Below are positions 54,110-63,069 of a DNA stretch of 64,000 nt, piece by piece (within the stretch, counting starts at the first letter, position 1; the number at the start of each line of letters is the position of its first letter). Made by a program: the position numbers and the translations under genes. The stretch lies in assembly GCA_041299705.1 (NCBI GenBank), contig JBGLNM010000001.1, positions 281,763 to 345,762 of the forward strand, written 5' to 3'. The stretch comes from Desulfobacterales bacterium (lineage in GTDB: Bacteria; Desulfobacterota; Desulfobacteria; Desulfobacterales; JBGLNM01). The notes under the pieces are model-generated. The model was not told where the DNA came from. It saw only the letters and a program-made list of their open reading frames with translations, and did no database searches.

Positions 54110-55351
54110 TCAGCCGGCCGGCTCACCGGGCGCGCAAGCGCCTCCGGTATACTCGATCGCCAGCAGGCTCATGTCGTCCTCCGGCGGGGTCGCGCCGCGA
54201 AGCGTCCTGGCGCGCTCGAACAGCGCGTCGACCCAATCCTGAAGCCCGGGCCGGCGGGCATCCCCCAAGTGCCGGTAAAACCTCTCCTTGCACTCCCCCC
54301 CGCTGCCCACGCCGAAATTGTCGATCAGCCCGTCGGTGCAGAGAATGAAGCGGTCGCCGCGTTCCAGCCGGCGCTCCTCCTGGCCGAAGGGCGTGCCGAA
54401 GCCCGCGCCGATCACCGTCCCGTGGCGTTCCAGGACCTCCAGCCGCCCGTCGGACCTCAGGATCAGGGGCGGAACGTGGCCGGCATTGCTGTAGACCAGC
54501 CGGCCGGTGCCGGTGTCGAGCGTGGCGCAGGCGATGGTGAAGTAGCAGTCGAAACGGTCCAGGGGGAATGCGCTGTCCAGGCGGCCCATGACCTCCTCGG
54601 GGCTGAACGGCCTGCCTGTCTGGCGCATGCGGCTGTGCAGGCTGTGGAGGAACTGGGAGACGGTCACCGCCACCAGGGCCGCGGAGACCCCGTGGCCGCA
54701 AACATCCAGCACGTAGAGGCTGAGCCGGTCCTCGGCGTTGAGGTAGATCTGGAAAATGTCGCCGCCGATCCGGCTGCAGGGCTCGAAACGCCAGGCGGCG
54801 CGGGTGCCGGGGAGGCTGGGCGCCTTGTCGGGCAGAAGGCTTTTCTGGATCTCGTAGGCGGCGGCGAGATCCCGGTCGATCTGCTCCTTTTTCTTTTCCA
54901 GCTCTCGCTTCTGCCTTTCCCTCTCTGTGAGGTCGTAGATGATCACCAGGGTCATGCGGCGGCCCCTGAACCGAATGCGCCGGGCGCTGAACTCCAGAAA
55001 TTTCGTGACCGGCCGGCCGTCGATGTAAAAGACCCGTTCCAGGCGCCTGCGGTCCACGGGGGCAGCTTCCATCAGGGTCTGGATCAGGGTTTTCTTGAGC
55101 ACGCAGTTAGCGCACTGGGACGTCTCGCCGCAGGACTTTTTTTCCAGCACCGCATTGACGCAGCCCGCGACCCGGCCGAAGGAACCTCCGCCCTGGAACC
55201 CGCCGGCACGGTCGAACAGCCCCAGGAAGCTCCTGTTGAACTGGTGGATCTGCAGTTTTTCGTCGGCGACCAGCACGGCGGCATCGATGTTGTCCAGCAG
55301 CAGGTTCAGAAATTCGCTCGATTCCTTCAGGTCGTCGAGTTCGATGGGCAT
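54110..55351 (-). CDS. Cytoplasmic PAS-like + SpoIIE (PP2C) phosphatase
   Basis: IGGDIF, LDVCGHGV, NAGH.PP, TDGL, EDDMS; Cys cluster in GCVNA...CGETSQCANC. Confidence 0.87.
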   Translation of the reverse strand: MPIELDDLKESSEFLNLLLDNIDAAVLVADEKLQIHQFNRSFLGLFDRAGGFQGGGSFGRVAGCVNAVLEKKSCGETSQCANCVLKKTLIQTLMEAAPVDRRRLERVFYIDGRPVTKFLEFSARRIRFRGRRMTLVIIYDLTERERQKRELEKKKEQIDRDLAAAYEIQKSLLPDKAPSLPGTRAAWRFEPCSRIGGDIFQIYLNAEDRLSLYVLDVCGHGVSAALVAVTVSQFLHSLHSRMRQTGRPFSPEEVMGRLDSAFPLDRFDCYFTIACATLDTGTGRLVYSNAGHVPPLILRSDGRLEVLERHGTVIGAGFGTPFGQEERRLERGDRFILCTDGLIDNFGVGSGGECKERFYRHLGDARRPGLQDWVDALFERARTLRGATPPEDDMSLLAIEYTGGACAPGEPAG

Positions 55352-55737
55352 GGGACCTCGCTTTGCCGTGTCACCGTTTCCGGGATTGACTTGCCCCGGC
55401 TGCCGCGGCGGGAATGGGCGAAGCCTTCCCCCGCGCTCCCGGGGCATGCTAACCGCCGGGCCCCGGAAAAGCCTTGACCCAAGTCAAGCAGGCGTGCGCG
55501 CCGCACCGCTTCCATCATTGTGCCCATCCCCGGCAGCCTGTCAAGTCCTGGTTGCGGATGGCTTTTCCCCAAACCCCCGCGCGAAAAATGCTGAAAATGC
55601 CGATTCACTTGACGCCGCGACGGCTATCGGGTATGGGGATCATCGTCGGGCAAAAGACAGCCGGGCCGGGTTCGCCTTCACGGGGAAAGCGGTTGCGCCC
55701 GGGGGCACGGGGATGCGGCACGACCGCCAGGGTGCAT

Positions 55738-58044
55738 ATGCTGCGCAACAGACACCTGATCTTTTTCTCCCTTGCCCTCGTGCTGTTTGCGCACCCGGCC
55801 CACGGGCAGGACGGCGACCGGCTCGGCAAAAAGCACGTGCTGCTGCTCAACTCCTACAACAAGGGCTACACGTGGACCGATGCGGAGACCGCCGGCGTCG
55901 AGGCCGTTTTCGCGCCTCACCCGGACATCGTCCTGCGCGTCGAGTACATGGACGCCAAAATCCTGAACAGCGATGCCTATTACCAACGCCTCAAGGACCT
56001 CTACGCCCTCAAGTACGCCCGGCACCCCTTCGACGTGATCGTCTCCACCGACGACGACGCCTTCAATTTTCTCGTCCGCTACCGCGACGAGGTCTTCGCC
56101 AACACCCCGGTGGTGTTCTGCGGGGTCAACGACTTCGACCCCTCCAGGGTCGCCGGCTTTCCCCTCTGCACCGGCGTGAATGAATCCGCGGACTTCAGGG
56201 CCAACCTGGCCCTCATGGCACGGCTGCACCCGGGCGGCAGGCGCGTCGTCGTCATCAACGACAGCCTGACGACGGCGCGCTCCCTGCGGGCCGAATTCGA
56301 CGCGGCGGCGGCCGGGTTCAAGGAGCGCTTCGAATTCGTCCACGTCGACGACATCCCGATGGAGGATCTTCTCGACCGGCTCAAACGCCTCCCCGGCGAC
56401 AGCCTGGCCTTCTACCTTTCCTTTTTCAGGGACGGCGCCGGCCGGGCCTACGCGCCGGAGGAGGCCCTGCCGGCCATAGCGGCCGCCGCGCCCGTGCCGG
56501 TTTACGGCGCCGTGGACTACATGCTCGGAAACGGCATCGTCGGCGGCATGCTCAAGAGCAGCCGCTACCAGGGGGAGACCGCAGCCAGGCTGGCCCTCAG
56601 GATCCTGCGGGGCGAACCGGTGGGCGCAATCCCGGTGGTCACCGCCAGCCCCAACCAGTACATGTTCGATTACCGCCGGCTGAAGCCCTTCGGCATCCGC
56701 CTCTCGGAGCTGCCCGCAGGCAGCCTCATCGTCAACGAGCCCCAGACTTTCTACTACAAGTACAGGAAGATGATCTGGGCCGCCTTCGGCGTCTTCTCCA
56801 CCATGGCGCTCTACATCGTCTTCCTGCTGTTCAACATCCGCAAGCGCATCCGCGCCCAGCGGGGCCTGCAGTCCATCATCGGCATGACGGCGTCCATTTT
56901 CGACTACCACTCCCTCAAGGGCTTCAAGGCGGAACTGGTGGCCCGCCTGAGCACCCTTCTGCCCCTGAAGTCCGATCTGCGCCTCTTCAAATGCGTCTCG
57001 AACCCTGGGGGCCGGGAAAAGACCCTGGTCCCGGTGGATGCGGAGCCGGAGACCGATGCCGCTGCCGCCGATGCCGGGCTTTCACCCCAGGCCGAGGAGC
57101 TGATCGCGTGCTCCATGCGCGAGGAAAGGTGCCTGGTGAAGCGCAGGGACGCCGTGGCCTTCATCCGCAGCGACTACTCGCCCGGCAGGCTGGTGTTTTT
57201 CAGGGGCAGGAAATATTTCGACGCCCTCGACCGGGACCTGCTTGAAATCTTCGCCAACACCATCTCCATGTCCATCGAAAACCTCCAGAAGCTCAGGATC
57301 GAGGAATCGCTGGAAACCGCCCGGCGCATCCAGATGAGCATGCTGCCGACATCCTTCGGGGAGTTTTCACGAAAATTCGACCTGGACCTGTTCGCCTATC
57401 TCCTGCCGGCCAGGGAGGTGGGGGGGGACTTCTACGATTTTTTCGCCATCGACGAAACCCGCCTCTGCGTCACCGTGGGGGATGTGTCTGACAAGGGCAT
57501 ACCGGCGGCGCTCTTCATGTCCATGACCAAGAGTCTGATCCGGGTGGCGGCGGAGGGCAACCCCTGCCCCGAAAGGATCCTGGCCAGGGTCAACGACGAG
57601 CTGAGCCGGGAGAACGAACAGTCCATGTTCGTGACGGTTTTCGTGGCCGTCCTGGACCTGGGAACCGGGAGGCTGGCCTACGCCACCGCCGGCCACTCCC
57701 CGCCCTACATCATGGAGGCCGGGGGCGGTTTCCGCAAGCTCACCACCCCAACGGACGTCGCCCTGGGAATCGTCGAGGGGGCGGCGTATCGCTCCCGCGA
57801 AACCCGCCTGGGCCCGGGCGAGGGGCTCTTCCTCTATACCGACGGGGTGACCGAGGCCGCCAACGGCACAGGTGAGTTTTTCGACGAGAAGAACCTGGAA
57901 GCGGTGCTGGGCGTCAACGGCGGCGGCGCCTCCAAGGCCCTGATCGAAGCGGTCACGGACTCGCTGCGCGGGTTTGTCGCCGATGCGCCCCAGTCGGACG
58001 ACATCACGATGCTCTGCATCCGGAGAAACGGCCATGCCCGCTGA
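55738..58044 (+). CDS. Membrane sensor phosphatase: periplasmic ABC-substrate-binding-like domain, TM, DUF3369-like linker, SpoIIE (PP2C)
   Basis: Signal peptide; VLLLNSY, PVVFCGVN; TM MIWAAFG...; DRDLLEIF...ENL; VGGDFYD, GDVSDKG, AGHSPP, TDGVTEA, QSDDIT. Confidence 0.87.
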   Translation: MLRNRHLIFFSLALVLFAHPAHGQDGDRLGKKHVLLLNSYNKGYTWTDAETAGVEAVFAPHPDIVLRVEYMDAKILNSDAYYQRLKDLYALKYARHPFDVIVSTDDDAFNFLVRYRDEVFANTPVVFCGVNDFDPSRVAGFPLCTGVNESADFRANLALMARLHPGGRRVVVINDSLTTARSLRAEFDAAAAGFKERFEFVHVDDIPMEDLLDRLKRLPGDSLAFYLSFFRDGAGRAYAPEEALPAIAAAAPVPVYGAVDYMLGNGIVGGMLKSSRYQGETAARLALRILRGEPVGAIPVVTASPNQYMFDYRRLKPFGIRLSELPAGSLIVNEPQTFYYKYRKMIWAAFGVFSTMALYIVFLLFNIRKRIRAQRGLQSIIGMTASIFDYHSLKGFKAELVARLSTLLPLKSDLRLFKCVSNPGGREKTLVPVDAEPETDAAAADAGLSPQAEELIACSMREERCLVKRRDAVAFIRSDYSPGRLVFFRGRKYFDALDRDLLEIFANTISMSIENLQKLRIEESLETARRIQMSMLPTSFGEFSRKFDLDLFAYLLPAREVGGDFYDFFAIDETRLCVTVGDVSDKGIPAALFMSMTKSLIRVAAEGNPCPERILARVNDELSRENEQSMFVTVFVAVLDLGTGRLAYATAGHSPPYIMEAGGGFRKLTTPTDVALGIVEGAAYRSRETRLGPGEGLFLYTDGVTEAANGTGEFFDEKNLEAVLGVNGGGASKALIEAVTDSLRGFVADAPQSDDITMLCIRRNGHAR

Positions 58045-58825
58045 GAACGACGCGACCGAAGCCGGCCGCGCATCGGGGAAGGTTCTCGACCTGCCCTGGC
58101 GCAGCGCCAAGCCGAGGCGATCCGGGCTGACGGCCATCACCGACAACGGCATCCCGGCCGGCGAGCTGGCCCTGATCCTGGAAAGCTACCACCTGTTCAT
58201 CGACCTGGCCAAGATCGGGGTCGGGTCGGCGTACCTGGAGCCCAGGCTCGGCCAGAAGCTGCGTCTCTACGGGGACTTCGGCATCCCGGTCTATTTCGGC
58301 GGCACCCTCTTCGAGAAATACCACGCCCAGGGGCGCCTGGACGCTTACCTGCGGTGGCTCGAGTCCCTGAAGGTTTCGTGGCTCGAGGCATCCAACGGCA
58401 TCACCGCCGTCGCCACCGAGGAGATGGCCGGCCTGATCGGGAAGGTCGCCCGCCATTTCAACGTCCTGGCCGAGGTGGGGAAAAAAAAGGCCCGCGAGGG
58501 GCTGTCCCCGGGCGAATGGGTCGCGGCGGGCCGCGCCTACCTCCAGGCCGGCTGCCGCTACGTCGTGCTGGAGGGGCGCCACACGGCGGATGTCGGCATC
58601 TACGACGCGGGCGGAACCCTGCTGACCGGCCTGGTCAAGCGCATCACCGCGGACATCGACCCGGTCAGGATCATCTTCGAGGCCCCCACGGCCCACAGCC
58701 AGAACCAGCTCATCAACCTCATGGGAACCAACGTCAACCTCGGCAACGTCTTTGTCCGCGACCTCCTCCTGCTCGAATCCCAGCGCCGGGGGCTGCGGGA
58801 GGAAACGTTCTTCATTGGCGGATAG
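58034..58825 (+). CDS. comA: Phosphosulfolactate synthase (ComA/CoM-biosynthesis protein A family)
   Basis: KPR..GLT...D.G, IDLAKIG.GS, GGTLFE, EASNG, EVGKK, LEGR, IIFEAP, NVNLGNV, LESQRRGLR.ETF. Confidence 0.85.
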   Translation: MPAENDATEAGRASGKVLDLPWRSAKPRRSGLTAITDNGIPAGELALILESYHLFIDLAKIGVGSAYLEPRLGQKLRLYGDFGIPVYFGGTLFEKYHAQGRLDAYLRWLESLKVSWLEASNGITAVATEEMAGLIGKVARHFNVLAEVGKKKAREGLSPGEWVAAGRAYLQAGCRYVVLEGRHTADVGIYDAGGTLLTGLVKRITADIDPVRIIFEAPTAHSQNQLINLMGTNVNLGNVFVRDLLLLESQRRGLREETFFIGG

Positions 58826-59345
58826 CAAAACGGCCCTGGTGCGGCATTTTTCGACCCGCTACAACCGCGAGGGGCGGCTGCAGGGCCGGCGCGACATCCC
58901 CATCGCGGGCCCCGACCCGGGGGAAAAGGCGGCCATGGCCCGCAACCGGGACCTGCTGGCCCGCATCGGGCCCTTCGAGCGCGTGCTGGCCAGTTCACTG
59001 CAGCGCACCCGGATGACCGCCGCCTGCTACGGCTTGGCTTACCGGGTCGAGCCGCTCCTGGACGAACTGGATTTCGGCCCCTACGAGGGCTGGTCCCGGG
59101 CCGACTTCATCCGCGCCGTGGGGCCCCTCTGGTACCAGGCCCCCCAGCGCCTGACCCTGGGCGAGCCGCTGACCGCGCTCCAGGAACGCATAGAACGCTT
59201 CGCAGCCCGCTACAGGGCCGACGCCCGGGTCCTGGCCTTCGGCCACGGGGCCTGGATCCGGGCCTTTGTCAGCCTGCACCGTTTCGGCACCATCGCCCGC
59301 ATGAACCGGTTGCGGGTGGACAACAACGACATCGTGGTGGTCTGA
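58815..59345 (+). CDS. Histidine phosphatase (phosphoglycerate-mutase-like family)
   Basis: LVRHFST..N...RLQG..DIP, SSLQRT..TA, LDELDFG.YEG, FGHGAWIR; TTG start overlaps the comA stop. Confidence 0.85.
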   Translation: MADSKTALVRHFSTRYNREGRLQGRRDIPIAGPDPGEKAAMARNRDLLARIGPFERVLASSLQRTRMTAACYGLAYRVEPLLDELDFGPYEGWSRADFIRAVGPLWYQAPQRLTLGEPLTALQERIERFAARYRADARVLAFGHGAWIRAFVSLHRFGTIARMNRLRVDNNDIVVV

Positions 59346-59384
59346 CCGCGCGGCCCCGTTCCCCGCCCCATCCAAGGAGTCGAC

Positions 59385-60809
59385 ATGACGGCAATTCCGC
59401 CCGGCCCGGCGGGCCTGATCGCCAACAAGCCCCTGGCCTGGCTCCTGGCCCTGACCGTGCCGCCGGCCTTCTTCCTTGCGGCCCTGCACCTGGGCGTCAC
59501 CCGCAGCACCGCCCTTTTCCTCTCCATTGTCAGCGTGACCCTCGTCCTGTGGATGTTTTCCCTGATGGCCGACTTCATCCCGGCCCTGATCGCCCTCCTC
59601 CTGCTGCTGCTCTTCGGCCTGGCGCCCGGCGAGGTGGTGCTGTCCGGTTTTTCCTCCGGCACCTTCCTCATCGCTTTCAGCGTGATGGGCCTGGGGGCGG
59701 TCATCACGGCTTCCGGGCTCGCGCGGCGCTACACCCTTTGGCTGCTCAAGACGATCCCGCCCTCCGCCGCCTCCTACCAGGCCGCGCTGTTCTTCACCGG
59801 CTTCGTGTTCAACCCCGTGGTCCCCGCCATCACCGGCCGGGCCGTGATCGTCGGCCCGATCCTGAACCACATCGTCCAGTCGCTGGATGAAAAGACCCGC
59901 CGGCAATCCTCCACCCTGCTTTACCTCGGCGGGCTGGACAGCCTCAATTACCTCTCCCCGGTCTTTTTGACCGCGGCCCCGGCCAACCTCATGCTCTTCG
60001 GCCTCTTCCCGCCCCAGGAGCAGCAGACCTTCCAGTTTCTCTTCTGGCTGTATGCGGCCTCCATCACCGGCGCGGTCATGCTGGTCCTCTACTTCGCCGC
60101 CTCCGCCGCCTTTTTCCGCCCCTTCGGCAGGGTCGAGGTCGACCGCCAGGCCGTCGAGCGGGCCTGGAAGGGGCTGGGAAAAATGAGCTGGCAGGAGCGG
60201 GCCGCCCTTTTCGGGATCGCCCTGCTGGCGGCAGGCGTGGCCACCGCCGGGCTGCACAAGATCCCCATCCCCCTGGTCACCTTCGGCGTGATCTGCTCCC
60301 TGCTGACGGTGGGGGCCCTGCCCAGGGAGGAGTTCGTGCGGGGGATCGACTGGGCCTTCCTGTTCCTGCTGGCCAGCATGATCGGCATCCTGGAGGGCAT
60401 GAAGTACCTGGGCCTCGACGCGCAGCTGGTCCAGCGCCTCGGCTGGCTGCAGGGCTACATGCGCCAGGACTTCGCGCTCTTCGTGCCGGTCCTGTCCGCC
60501 GCCATCCTCGTGGTGCGCCTGTTCGTCCCCCTCAACTCCGCCATCCTGATCTTTGCCGCGACCCTGATCCCCCTGGCGTCCGGGGCCGGGATCAGCCCCT
60601 GGGTGGTGGGCTTCGTGATCCTCATCATGGCGGAAACCGCCTTTTTCGGCTACCAGTCGCCCTATATCCTCTTTTTCAGAAACCTGACCGCGGCCTGGGT
60701 CCCCTACAACGAGACCCGGGTGCGGATGTTTCACGCCATCCTGGTGGCGGTGAAGCTGCTCGCCATCTACGCTTCCATCCCCTTCTGGCGGGCGATCGGG
60801 GTGCTATGA
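59385..60809 (+). CDS. SLC13/DASS (ion transporter superfamily) anion permease
   Basis: About 12 or more TM segments, SGFSS.TF, LTAAPANL, IDWAFLFL; AAGGAG RBS. Confidence 0.8.
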   Translation: MTAIPPGPAGLIANKPLAWLLALTVPPAFFLAALHLGVTRSTALFLSIVSVTLVLWMFSLMADFIPALIALLLLLLFGLAPGEVVLSGFSSGTFLIAFSVMGLGAVITASGLARRYTLWLLKTIPPSAASYQAALFFTGFVFNPVVPAITGRAVIVGPILNHIVQSLDEKTRRQSSTLLYLGGLDSLNYLSPVFLTAAPANLMLFGLFPPQEQQTFQFLFWLYAASITGAVMLVLYFAASAAFFRPFGRVEVDRQAVERAWKGLGKMSWQERAALFGIALLAAGVATAGLHKIPIPLVTFGVICSLLTVGALPREEFVRGIDWAFLFLLASMIGILEGMKYLGLDAQLVQRLGWLQGYMRQDFALFVPVLSAAILVVRLFVPLNSAILIFAATLIPLASGAGISPWVVGFVILIMAETAFFGYQSPYILFFRNLTAAWVPYNETRVRMFHAILVAVKLLAIYASIPFWRAIGVL

Positions 60810-61852
60810 GAAAGGAACGGCTCAGCCAAGCCCTGTGCCTGGTCTTCCTGGCGGCCATCCTGGTGGCCGGGGTGGCCTTCAATGCGTCCAAGCCCCGGGT
60901 GATGATCCTTCACAGCTACGACCCGGAGTATGCCTGGAGCCGGGACATCGACGTGGGGCTGCACCGCGTCGTCGACAAGTGGCACGACTGTTCCGTCTCG
61001 TGGCACTACATGGACACCAAGAAACACCCCGACCCGCAGTGGCTGCGGCGCGCGGGGATCATCGCCCGCAGGGCCGTCGCCCGCAACTCCCCGCACGTGC
61101 TCATCGCCGTCGACGACCTGGCCCAGGAACTGGCCGCCCGGCACTTCGTCGACGATCCGCGCATGGACATCGTTTTCGCCGGCGTCAACGCCGGCATCGA
61201 GCCCTACGGCTACCACCGGGCCGGCAACGTGACCGGGATCCTGGAGCACAAGGTTCTCAAGGCCGTGCAGGAAACCATCCTGGCCATCAGATCCCGGGGC
61301 CGCCCCCCCCTGGAAGCCCCCCGGATGCTCTACATCCTCGACACGTCCGAGTCGCTGCTCTCGGACCGGCGGCTGGTCGACGCCTTCGACTGGTCCCCCG
61401 TCGACTACCGGGGCTCCCACGTCGCCGGGAGCTTCGAACACTGGAAAGAGATCGTCCGGACCCACGGCCCCTCGGTGGATTACATCCTGGTGGCCAACTA
61501 CCGCAAGCTGCCGCGATCCGACGGCGACCCGACCCTCGCCGACCCCGGGGAGGTCATGGCCTGGACCGACCGCCATTCGCCCGCCCCGGTCATCGGCATC
61601 AACGCCTTCAACGTCGAGGACGGCGCCATGCTCGCGGTGGGGCCCTCGCCCTTCGAGCAGGGCGAGGTGGCCGCCACGCTGGCGCGGCGCATCATCGACG
61701 AGGGCATCCGCGGCGGCCGGATCCCCGTTCAGGAAAACAGGCAGTACATCGTGGCCATGCGCCAGGAGGCCATGAGCCGGCGCGGCCTGAGGCTGCCCAT
61801 GATCTACGAGGCCTACGCCTACTTCCTGAGCCTGACGCCGCAGGGCGACTAG
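60806..61852 (+). CDS. Exported ABC-substrate-binding-like protein, homologous to the sensor domain of 55738
   Basis: N-terminal anchor; VMILHSYDPEYAWS, IAVDD.A, IVFAGVN, SPFEQGE.A; ATGA overlap with the permease. Confidence 0.75.
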   Translation: MRKERLSQALCLVFLAAILVAGVAFNASKPRVMILHSYDPEYAWSRDIDVGLHRVVDKWHDCSVSWHYMDTKKHPDPQWLRRAGIIARRAVARNSPHVLIAVDDLAQELAARHFVDDPRMDIVFAGVNAGIEPYGYHRAGNVTGILEHKVLKAVQETILAIRSRGRPPLEAPRMLYILDTSESLLSDRRLVDAFDWSPVDYRGSHVAGSFEHWKEIVRTHGPSVDYILVANYRKLPRSDGDPTLADPGEVMAWTDRHSPAPVIGINAFNVEDGAMLAVGPSPFEQGEVAATLARRIIDEGIRGGRIPVQENRQYIVAMRQEAMSRRGLRLPMIYEAYAYFLSLTPQGD

Positions 61853-61875
61853 CCCCTGCGCGACGCCCCCAGGCC

Positions 61876-61905
61876 GGACATATAGGGGACGGACATATTG
61901 GGGAC
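61876..61905. repeat. 15-bp tandem duplication (GGACATAT(A/T)GGGGAC x2) followed by an AT-rich tract
   Basis: 61876-61890 and 61891-61905 differ at one position; located between convergent genes. Confidence 0.7.
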
Positions 61906-62049
61906 GTCCATTTATTATTCATTTAAACGGGTCTTTCGCGAGGGGACTCGGAATTCTTGCAGCGGGTGCCCGCGGCCCCTTGCAGCTCTCGCCCGCGCGG
62001 AGGGAGGCGGGAAAGGCGGCGCGGGCGCTTGCGCCCGCCCGGGAGCGCC

Positions 62050-63069
62050 TCACGCCAGCCTTGCGTCGAAGGGCGCCAGCCGTCGGAGCAGCTGCGCGGA
62101 CTCCTCGGCTTCGAAGTACGGGTAATCGATCAGCGCCTTCAGCTTGCCCCGGAACCCGGGGTAGGACCGGCGGGCGTCCGCGCCGTAGTAGAGGCGCCGG
62201 TGCCGGCCTTCCAGGGCGCGCACGAACCCCGCGTAGGACGGCAGCGCGCAGGGTCCGTCGCCGTGGCCGAACAGGTCGAGCAGCAGGCGTGTGAGCAGCA
62301 GGATGCAGCCCACGTCCTCGATGCGCCGGGAGGACCTCTCGAACTGCCGGTAGCGGGACACGACGTGGCCGAAGTGGACGATACTGCCGCCGGCATCCAG
62401 GCACCGGATGCGGCCGGGCGAAGTCCGGCGCTGGGCGTAGAGGAAGGTGTCCATCACGCAGCGTCTGCCGTCGATCACGTCCGCCCGCGGGCGCAGGTCG
62501 CTGGGGGAAAACGACCTGGCCCAGGCCACGTCGACCATCATCTCCCAGGTCGCCACCAGGTGGCCCGTTCCGGGCAGGCCGCTCCAGTCGTATCCGCTCC
62601 AGGGCCGCGCGATGCCGCACGCAGCCAGCCGATGCCGCATCTGCCGGTGGATGCCGCACAAAAAGTCCGGCTTTAAAGGGAAAAGGTCGACATCGTGAAG
62701 AAGGGCCGCCCGACTCGCGACGGACTCGATCGCGTTGACGATCTGGAGGAAGTGGATCGTGCTCGGCGAACCCAGCATCCGGCGCACCAGGCGATCCCGG
62801 GGCTTCATTCGAACCAGCCTCAGAGCGATGCCGCCGCGCGTGCGGGCCTTCCCGCGCACGTAACGCTCGAAACGCGGCAATACGGCGTCGGGGACGACCA
62901 GGATCTCACGCAGGCCGGCCTTCTCCTGCCGATCGAGCACCCGCAGGGAGAGGTCGAGCCAGCAGGGAAGATCCGGCGGGGTCAGGATGAGAAAGGCGTA
63001 GCCCCCCGCGGACAGGGGCGCAGGTTTCCGCCAGCGGGGGTATGCCAGCGACCAGAGCCTCTCCCTCAT
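62050..63069 (-). CDS. Hypothetical protein, possible GT-A glycosyltransferase-like fold
   Basis: ILVVPD, ALLHDVDLF (DxD-like). Confidence 0.5.
   Translation of the reverse strand: MRERLWSLAYPRWRKPAPLSAGGYAFLILTPPDLPCWLDLSLRVLDRQEKAGLREILVVPDAVLPRFERYVRGKARTRGGIALRLVRMKPRDRLVRRMLGSPSTIHFLQIVNAIESVASRAALLHDVDLFPLKPDFLCGIHRQMRHRLAACGIARPWSGYDWSGLPGTGHLVATWEMMVDVAWARSFSPSDLRPRADVIDGRRCVMDTFLYAQRRTSPGRIRCLDAGGSIVHFGHVVSRYRQFERSSRRIEDVGCILLLTRLLLDLFGHGDGPCALPSYAGFVRALEGRHRRLYYGADARRSYPGFRGKLKALIDYPYFEAEESAQLLRRLAPFDARLA

Follow-up and report, generated by a model that had tools for sequence, protein, structure and literature searches.

A comA-linked histidine phosphatase family as a candidate replacement for ComB in sulfolactate biosynthesis

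Sulfolactate serves as a precursor of coenzyme M, is abundant as a solute in Bacillus subtilis spores and is a widely traded sulfonate, and to our knowledge the second step of its biosynthesis is at present annotated through ComB only. ComB is said, with Graham et al. 2001 as the reputed source, to be a Mg2+-dependent acid phosphatase. Two ways of processing the ComA product are known: ComB hydrolyses it, and XcbC, an enzyme of the aspartase/fumarase family, eliminates its phosphate, converting the ComA/XcbB product to sulfoacrylate during bacterial coenzyme M synthesis (PMC9457059). In the stretch of DNA analysed here (64,000 nucleotides of a Desulfobacterales genome, hereafter the window), the stop codon of a comA-family gene is overlapped by the start of a gene for a histidine phosphatase, which raises the question of whether this protein takes the place of ComB and removes the phosphate from the ComA product, as the initial annotation had proposed.

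The phosphatase gene (58815–59345, plus strand) starts with TTG at 58815, stops with TGA at 59343–59345 and encodes 176 amino acids (aa). The comA stop codon (TAG, 58823–58825) falls within its first codons, giving an 11-nt overlap, and a purine-rich, Shine–Dalgarno-like GGGAGGA read from the sequence (58797–58803, plus strand) lies within the 3′ end of comA, 11–12 nt 5′ of the TTG. Pfam places the protein in His_Phos_1 (PF00300, branch 1; E = 9.9e-23, 81 bits against a cut-off of 21.7, residues 8–175), and the branch-1 catalytic core is complete: R10 and H11 belong to the nucleophile motif R10-H11-F12 (codons at 58842–58850, plus strand), R64 and E84 are encoded at 59004–59006 and 59064–59066 (both plus strand), and H144 (59244–59246) is the centre of the second catalytic histidine motif, G143-H144-G145 (59241–59249, plus strand). 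The AlphaFold model (pLDDT 96.2) has a dPGM-like alpha/beta fold, with a TM score of 0.84 to Rv3214 (2A6P) and 0.83 to 9MMH in Foldseek comparisons. Because an identical 176-aa protein is already on record, homologues extend down to E = 1e-86 and the model reaches a pLDDT of 96, the open reading frame is real, far beyond chance. A promoter and terminator scan of positions 54800–62400 gave counts not above those of shuffled sequences and hence no operon boundaries, and a complex prediction for ComA and the phosphatase, run with alignments, scored 0.00, which weighs on neither side of the question of binding.

Homologues of the window protein form a sharply bounded family. Among 5.8 billion proteins searched, about 70 proteins of 172–202 aa match at E values between 1e-21 and 1e-86, and beyond them there is a gap down to 1e-6. 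When 1.84 billion cluster representatives were searched with a profile, 134 reached E <= 1e-30, compared with 26,367 generic superfamily matches; the family comprises about 134 clusters at 50% identity. Across the 44 members of alignment A1, R10, R64, E84 and H144 are invariant and H11 nearly so, and the shared motifs comprise RHLPT..N, LQG, S.L.RT..TA, LLDELDFGPYEG, W...P, FGHGAWIRA and a C-terminal MN pair. The three motifs that define the family, along with a length of about 175–195 aa, are RH[L/M/F]xT, LLDELDFG.[YFW]E and FGHG[AS]W[IM]RA, and all are present in the window phosphatase. The description offered by the initial annotation, a gene overlapping the comA stop that encodes an RH(G>F) histidine phosphatase with both catalytic histidine motifs, is therefore correct as to the open reading frame, the overlap, RHF and GHG. 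As a distinguishing mark, the change from RHG to RHF stands in part only: the phenylalanine is present here, but the glycine of the textbook RHG is replaced throughout the family, the hallmark being RHL (RHL in 79, RHM in 3 and RHF in 1, the window copy, among 83 loci), and the closest solved relatives PspA and 9MMH likewise lack the glycine, both having RHA.

The closest solved proteins are 9MMH, PspA (4IJ5) and CobC (6NRU), at E values of 1e-15 to 1e-18. PspA, CobC, the riboflavin-pathway phosphatase HFP (9MMH) and Rv3214 share the fold and catalytic core of the window protein and are comparable in size (about 175–210 aa), but their identity to it is just 20–25%; the ComA-partner family has motifs of its own, and its genes sit with comA rather than with cob, ser or rib genes. 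No NCBIfam equivalog assignment was reached, as the CobC, PspA, GpmB and acid-phosphatase models all score far under their cut-offs. Identity with the CobC alpha-ribazole phosphatase (TIGR03162) was rejected at 66.4 bits against a cut-off of 162.9, with cobalamin genes absent nearby, as was identity with the phosphoserine phosphatase PspA (NF045917), at 21.2 bits against 350. Membership in the ComB family (PF04029) was likewise rejected, since a Pfam scan of the window phosphatase returns PF00300 only; ComB is indeed a different family, as first suggested, and judged by its sequence the window protein is a functional analogue of ComB at most.

In the window, the phosphatase belongs to a cassette of five co-oriented genes (55738–61852). 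The first encodes a membrane sensor phosphatase (55738–58044, plus strand) with a periplasmic ABC_sub_bind-like domain, DUF3369 and a PP2C (SpoIIE) domain, as assigned by Pfam and by relatives, and is followed by the ComA-family, phosphosulfolactate synthase-like gene (58034–58825, plus strand), the phosphatase, a DASS/SLC13-type anion transporter recognized from profiles and relatives (59385–60809, plus strand, 40 nt 3′ of the phosphatase) and an exported or anchored ABC_sub_bind-like binding protein (60806–61852, plus strand; Pfam and homology). The binding protein and the sensor domain of the PP2C protein are homologues that align across the full length of the former (26% identity, E = 2e-9). 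The whole cassette is common to the window genome, four Desulfobacterota genera and Endothiovibrio (loci L014, L016, L020/L028, L021, L023, L047 and L087), and in relatives it adjoins genes for partner switching (STAS and HATPase_c_2) or for a guanylate cyclase; the window itself contains no STAS gene. The Endothiovibrio order is shuffled (sensor, DASS transporter, binding protein, ComA, phosphatase), with ComA and the phosphatase still side by side.

The window ComA scores 210 bits with PF02679 and 173 bits with TIGR03849, the latter under the cut-off of 280, and can be aligned over its entire length with B. subtilis YitD (1U83) and Methanocaldococcus jannaschii ComA (1QWG). Its motif VVLEGRHTAD has EGRH where canonical ComA has EGRE. 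All seven cassette-type ComAs carry EGR[N/H/A] at this site, against E[G/A]R[E/D] in Bacillaceae, myxobacterial and comB-linked ComAs, and the lysine after FEAP is variable among them. These altered residues may change metal or substrate handling and, because the acidic residue after EGR is missing and the FEAP lysine varies, the product of the cassette-type ComAs, that of the window included, might differ from the canonical one.

We examined 80 genome loci of the family, mostly from Bacillaceae and allies, with others from Desulfobacula, Desulfobacter, Desulforhopalus and Desulfotalea, from Chromatiales and other Gammaproteobacteria, and from Myxococcales, Gaiellaceae and Solibacteraceae. In 74 of them comA immediately precedes the phosphatase on the same strand, ending within a few dozen bases of it; in the remaining 6 the two are not neighbours. 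Loci with comA upstream span Bacillota, Thermodesulfobacteriota, Pseudomonadota, Myxococcota and Actinomycetota. A sixth phylum, Acidobacteriota, is represented by one locus (L098), in the vicinity of which comA is missing. Two of the phosphatase-adjacent comA genes are interrupted: that of a Gaiellaceae MAG (L040:6076-6874) is split by a stop or frameshift, with an intact second comA and a comB also present, and that of Siminovitchia sediminis (L061, G071:C17:25164-25868) has an in-frame TGA.

The pair is kept in three operon architectures. One is the cassette of Desulfobacterota and Endothiovibrio, with five genes as in the window. Another, found in most Bacillaceae loci, is an operon headed by the pair, comA-HP-cysH(PAPS reductase)-sat-cysC, flanked by a divergent MFS transporter gene, a TauE gene and a convergent YitT gene; judging from its gene content, it would provide a complete route from sulfate through sulfite to a sulfonated C3 acid (sulfolactate). 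This operon parallels the B. subtilis yitCD and yitBA-yisZ genes, inferred makers of the sulfolactate that amounts to 5% of spore dry weight (PMC517825), with the phosphatase in the place of ComB, and the comB-type locus L109 has the same neighbours as the Bacillaceae operon, with comB at the position of the phosphatase. The third is a nonulosonic-acid (pseudaminic/legionaminic-type) sugar locus with NeuB, a DegT-type aminotransferase and CTP_transf_3, in which comA overlaps by 4 nt the start of the next gene, which encodes a 609-aa fusion of the family phosphatase to an ATP-grasp carboxylate ligase (L121:5255-7830), an arrangement that fits a free carboxylic acid as the predicted phosphatase product.

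A replacement of ComB should leave the two phosphatases mutually exclusive beside comA, and this is the pattern that emerged. We compared the coordinates of comA, PF04029 and family-profile matches in an even sample of 251 genomes of the order Bacillales. The phosphatase adjoins comA in 30 of the 41 comA-bearing genomes and comB does so in 10, with neither in 1 (G314) and both in none. Within the phylum of the window, comA occurs in 36 of 351 sampled genomes; among the 35 other than the window genome, comB is adjacent in 10, present only as an unlinked gene in 10 and absent in 15, and the present family occurs in none. Relatives from the same order (40 genomes searched) likewise yielded no orthologue of the phosphatase and only generic His_Phos matches at E >= 5e-8, and in this order the comA–phosphatase pair is probably an acquisition or has a patchy distribution.

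In a quick IQ-TREE analysis, all phosphatase-linked ComAs form one clade apart from the comB-linked ones (SH-aLRT 96, branch length 1.3), within which the cassette ComAs are a subclade (support 95); the phosphatase tree shows a split between Bacillaceae and Gram-negative members that matches the ComA tree. Because exclusivity follows the ComA clades, it reflects a few old partnerships and not 40 independent events, and the independent element is the pair itself, retained in three unrelated operon contexts. ComB (YitC; PF04029, EC 3.1.3.71) catalyses the reaction that is proposed here for the window protein and has the same genomic role next to comA, in Bacillales even within the same island of cysH-sat-cysC, MFS and YitT genes. 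It differs in its unrelated fold and chemistry, the window protein being a predicted metal-independent phospho-histidine enzyme without PF04029 signal, and in pairing with a different ComA clade. The Bacillales genome with neither partner, G314, has a locus with the usual MFS, TauE and YitT neighbours (L117, G314:C11:60000-69000) that reads comA-cysH-sat-cysC without the phosphatase, and no ComB-family gene; since its ComA belongs to the phosphatase-linked clade and directly precedes cysH-sat-cysC, the phosphatase has been lost there.

The initial annotation had held that a comB elsewhere in the same genomes would speak against replacement. By count such genes exist, a ComB-family gene lying elsewhere, always far from comA, in 15 of 50 phosphatase-bearing genomes, but in substance the objection does not carry, the paralogue being shared by both genome types. 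In the Bacillales sample it is present in 14 of 30 phosphatase-type and 6 of 10 comB-type genomes; its score is about 200 bits, whereas most comA-linked ComBs reach about 130 bits. Because it is about as frequent in comB-type as in phosphatase-type genomes, the unlinked paralogue probably has another job. One example is G087:C1:5068601-5069275, and 13 other Bacillales genomes are alike. PF04029 matches also occur in ComA-less control genomes (Synechococcus, Thermus, Deinococcus and Thermotoga).

The window genome itself has a single comA in its 2.54-Mb assembly, and PF04029 has no match there (61% marker completeness). At the same completeness, neither PAPS reductase, DsrA nor Sulfotransfer_3 was found in the 2.54 Mb, and no source of sulfite was identified there; for DsrA, PAPS reductase and ComC/Ldh_2, which was also not found, such non-detections are not proof of absence. 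That ComC/Ldh_2 was not found fits sulfolactate as the end product, as far as an incomplete genome allows. An APS kinase domain lies in a 581-aa open frame (G000:C1:955316-955774).

Our inference of the substrate and the chemistry draws on the sequence, a complete catalytic core, the fold, conserved linkage to comA and the exclusivity with comB beside it. The reading we favour, with a probability of roughly 0.6, is that the window gene specifies the enzyme that dephosphorylates phosphosulfolactate in a sulfolactate route independent of ComB, and the earlier proposal that it dephosphorylates the ComA product in place of ComB is thus supported at the level of comparative genomics. ComA would join sulfite and phosphoenolpyruvate to give (2R)-2-phospho-3-sulfolactate, and the phosphatase, whose translation would begin within the last codons of comA, would take off the 2-phosphate by the usual histidine-phosphatase cycle. 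His11 would attack the phosphate, held by Arg10, Asn17, Arg64 and His144, and Glu84 would protonate the leaving alkoxide and then activate a water molecule for hydrolysis of the phospho-histidine. This cycle would be metal-free, unlike that of the Mg2+-dependent ComB, and the product would be handed to the adjacent DASS transporter. The native ligand of the dPGM-like fold is 2,3-bisphosphoglycerate. Phosphosulfolactate can be regarded as its analogue, with a sulfonate for the 3-phosphate, and on these chemical grounds would be a natural ligand for the fold. XcbC resembles the window phosphatase in removing phosphate from the ComA/XcbB product, but it eliminates to sulfoacrylate where the histidine phosphatase would hydrolyse to sulfolactate; a Pfam scan of the window cassette found no lyase-type gene.

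Several observations speak against this reading: the altered motif of the cassette ComAs, the sulfite source not found in the incomplete window genome, the loss of the phosphatase in G314, and loci that keep the phosphatase without comA. In three gammaproteobacterial loci (L024, L097 and L120), the cassette has Sulfotransfer_3 at the position of comA and retains the phosphatase with unchanged active-site motifs; the phosphatase is translationally coupled on both sides and followed by a HATPase_c_2 (anti-sigma kinase-like) gene and two STAS genes. In L120 this variant spans L120:3169-10875. Retention of the phosphatase without comA means that the family cannot act on phosphosulfolactate everywhere, and its members either accept C3 phospho-acids of a related kind or share some other role, for instance the removal of 3′-phosphoadenosine-5′-phosphate (PAP). 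In a gammaproteobacterial MAG (L031:3375-12838), the gene order is P-type ATPase, enolase-like, GAPDH-like, phosphatase and PstS-like ABC transporter, and no comA was found in that genome.

A different or broader range of small C3 phospho-acids (2- or 3-phosphoglycerate, or an altered ComA product) as substrate, with the cassette making some other sulfated or sulfonated anion, is possible but in our view unlikely. The substitution of a sulfotransferase for ComA beside the same phosphatase motifs points that way, as do the cassette ComAs without the acidic residue after EGR, the position of the L031 phosphatase 3′ of enolase-like and GAPDH-like genes, and the substrates of the closest solved relatives (phosphoserine, 3-phosphoglycerate derivatives and ribazole phosphate). 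The phosphatases of Bacillaceae and of the glycan locus, however, pair with canonical-motif ComAs and sit with sulfite-making genes, and strict alternation with comB beside comA is hard to explain unless the two enzymes do the same job.

We hold it to be quite improbable that the protein is instead a PAP phosphatase, clearing the by-product of PAPS reductase or of PAPS-dependent sulfotransferases. Both enzymes release PAP, and the family adjoins PAPS reductase, ATP sulfurylase and APS kinase genes in most Bacillaceae loci and a sulfotransferase gene in the gammaproteobacterial variant; the window genome, too, has an APS kinase domain. Where these genes separate, however, the phosphatase follows comA and not cysH, and it also occurs in PAP-free contexts, which weakens this explanation: it stays with comA without cysH-sat-cysC in Siminovitchia and Robertmurraya, in the Desulfobacterota cassettes and in the glycan locus, none of which makes PAP, whereas G314 lost the phosphatase yet keeps cysH. 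Neither PAPS reductase nor Sulfotransfer_3 was found in the 2.54 Mb (61% complete) of the window genome, and a role in PAP removal would leave 16 of the 30 sampled phosphatase-type genomes without any candidate phosphosulfolactate phosphatase. Least probable of all is a signalling enzyme acting on a phospho-protein of the partner-switching circuit associated with the cassette, for although a PP2C sensor opens the cassette, relatives adjoin STAS and HATPase_c_2 genes and some histidine phosphatases, reportedly SixA among them, act on proteins, the same family occurs in Bacillaceae and glycan loci without signalling genes, the phosphatase of the shuffled cassette adjoins ComA and not PP2C, and the window has no STAS gene.

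The preferred assignment, a phosphosulfolactate phosphatase, lends itself to a bolder and rather doubtful extension, in which the family would be a metal-independent phosphosulfolactate phosphatase replacing ComB for a whole ComA clade in several phyla, and the window cassette would make and export a sulfonated C3 acid and sense that acid or its precursor outside the cell, feeding a partner-switching (STAS/anti-sigma) circuit. If this were true, the cassette would constitute a self-made sulfonate signal or a sensed route of sulfite disposal.

We found no paper that ties a histidine phosphatase to the phosphosulfolactate step, the papers recovered with related terms being unrelated genome and microbiome surveys; a mention of comB in the GeCoViz paper concerns cyanobacteria. 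The misNOPQ cassette comprises an ACP, a ligase, ComA and a glyoxalase, and no phosphatase (PMC9136965), and ComA-made phosphosulfolactate is easily prepared by a published method (PMC9457059). A known reaction would here be assigned to a new enzyme family with different predicted chemistry. If the assignment is true, many Bacillaceae, sulfate reducers, sulfur oxidisers and glycan loci that appear to lack ComB would gain a complete sulfolactate route, and a function could be given to about 134 clusters whose present label is ‘histidine phosphatase family protein’ or ‘probable phosphoglycerate mutase’. The two phosphatases would then represent a clean case of non-orthologous displacement, with phospho-histidine catalysis on one side and Mg2+ catalysis on the other.
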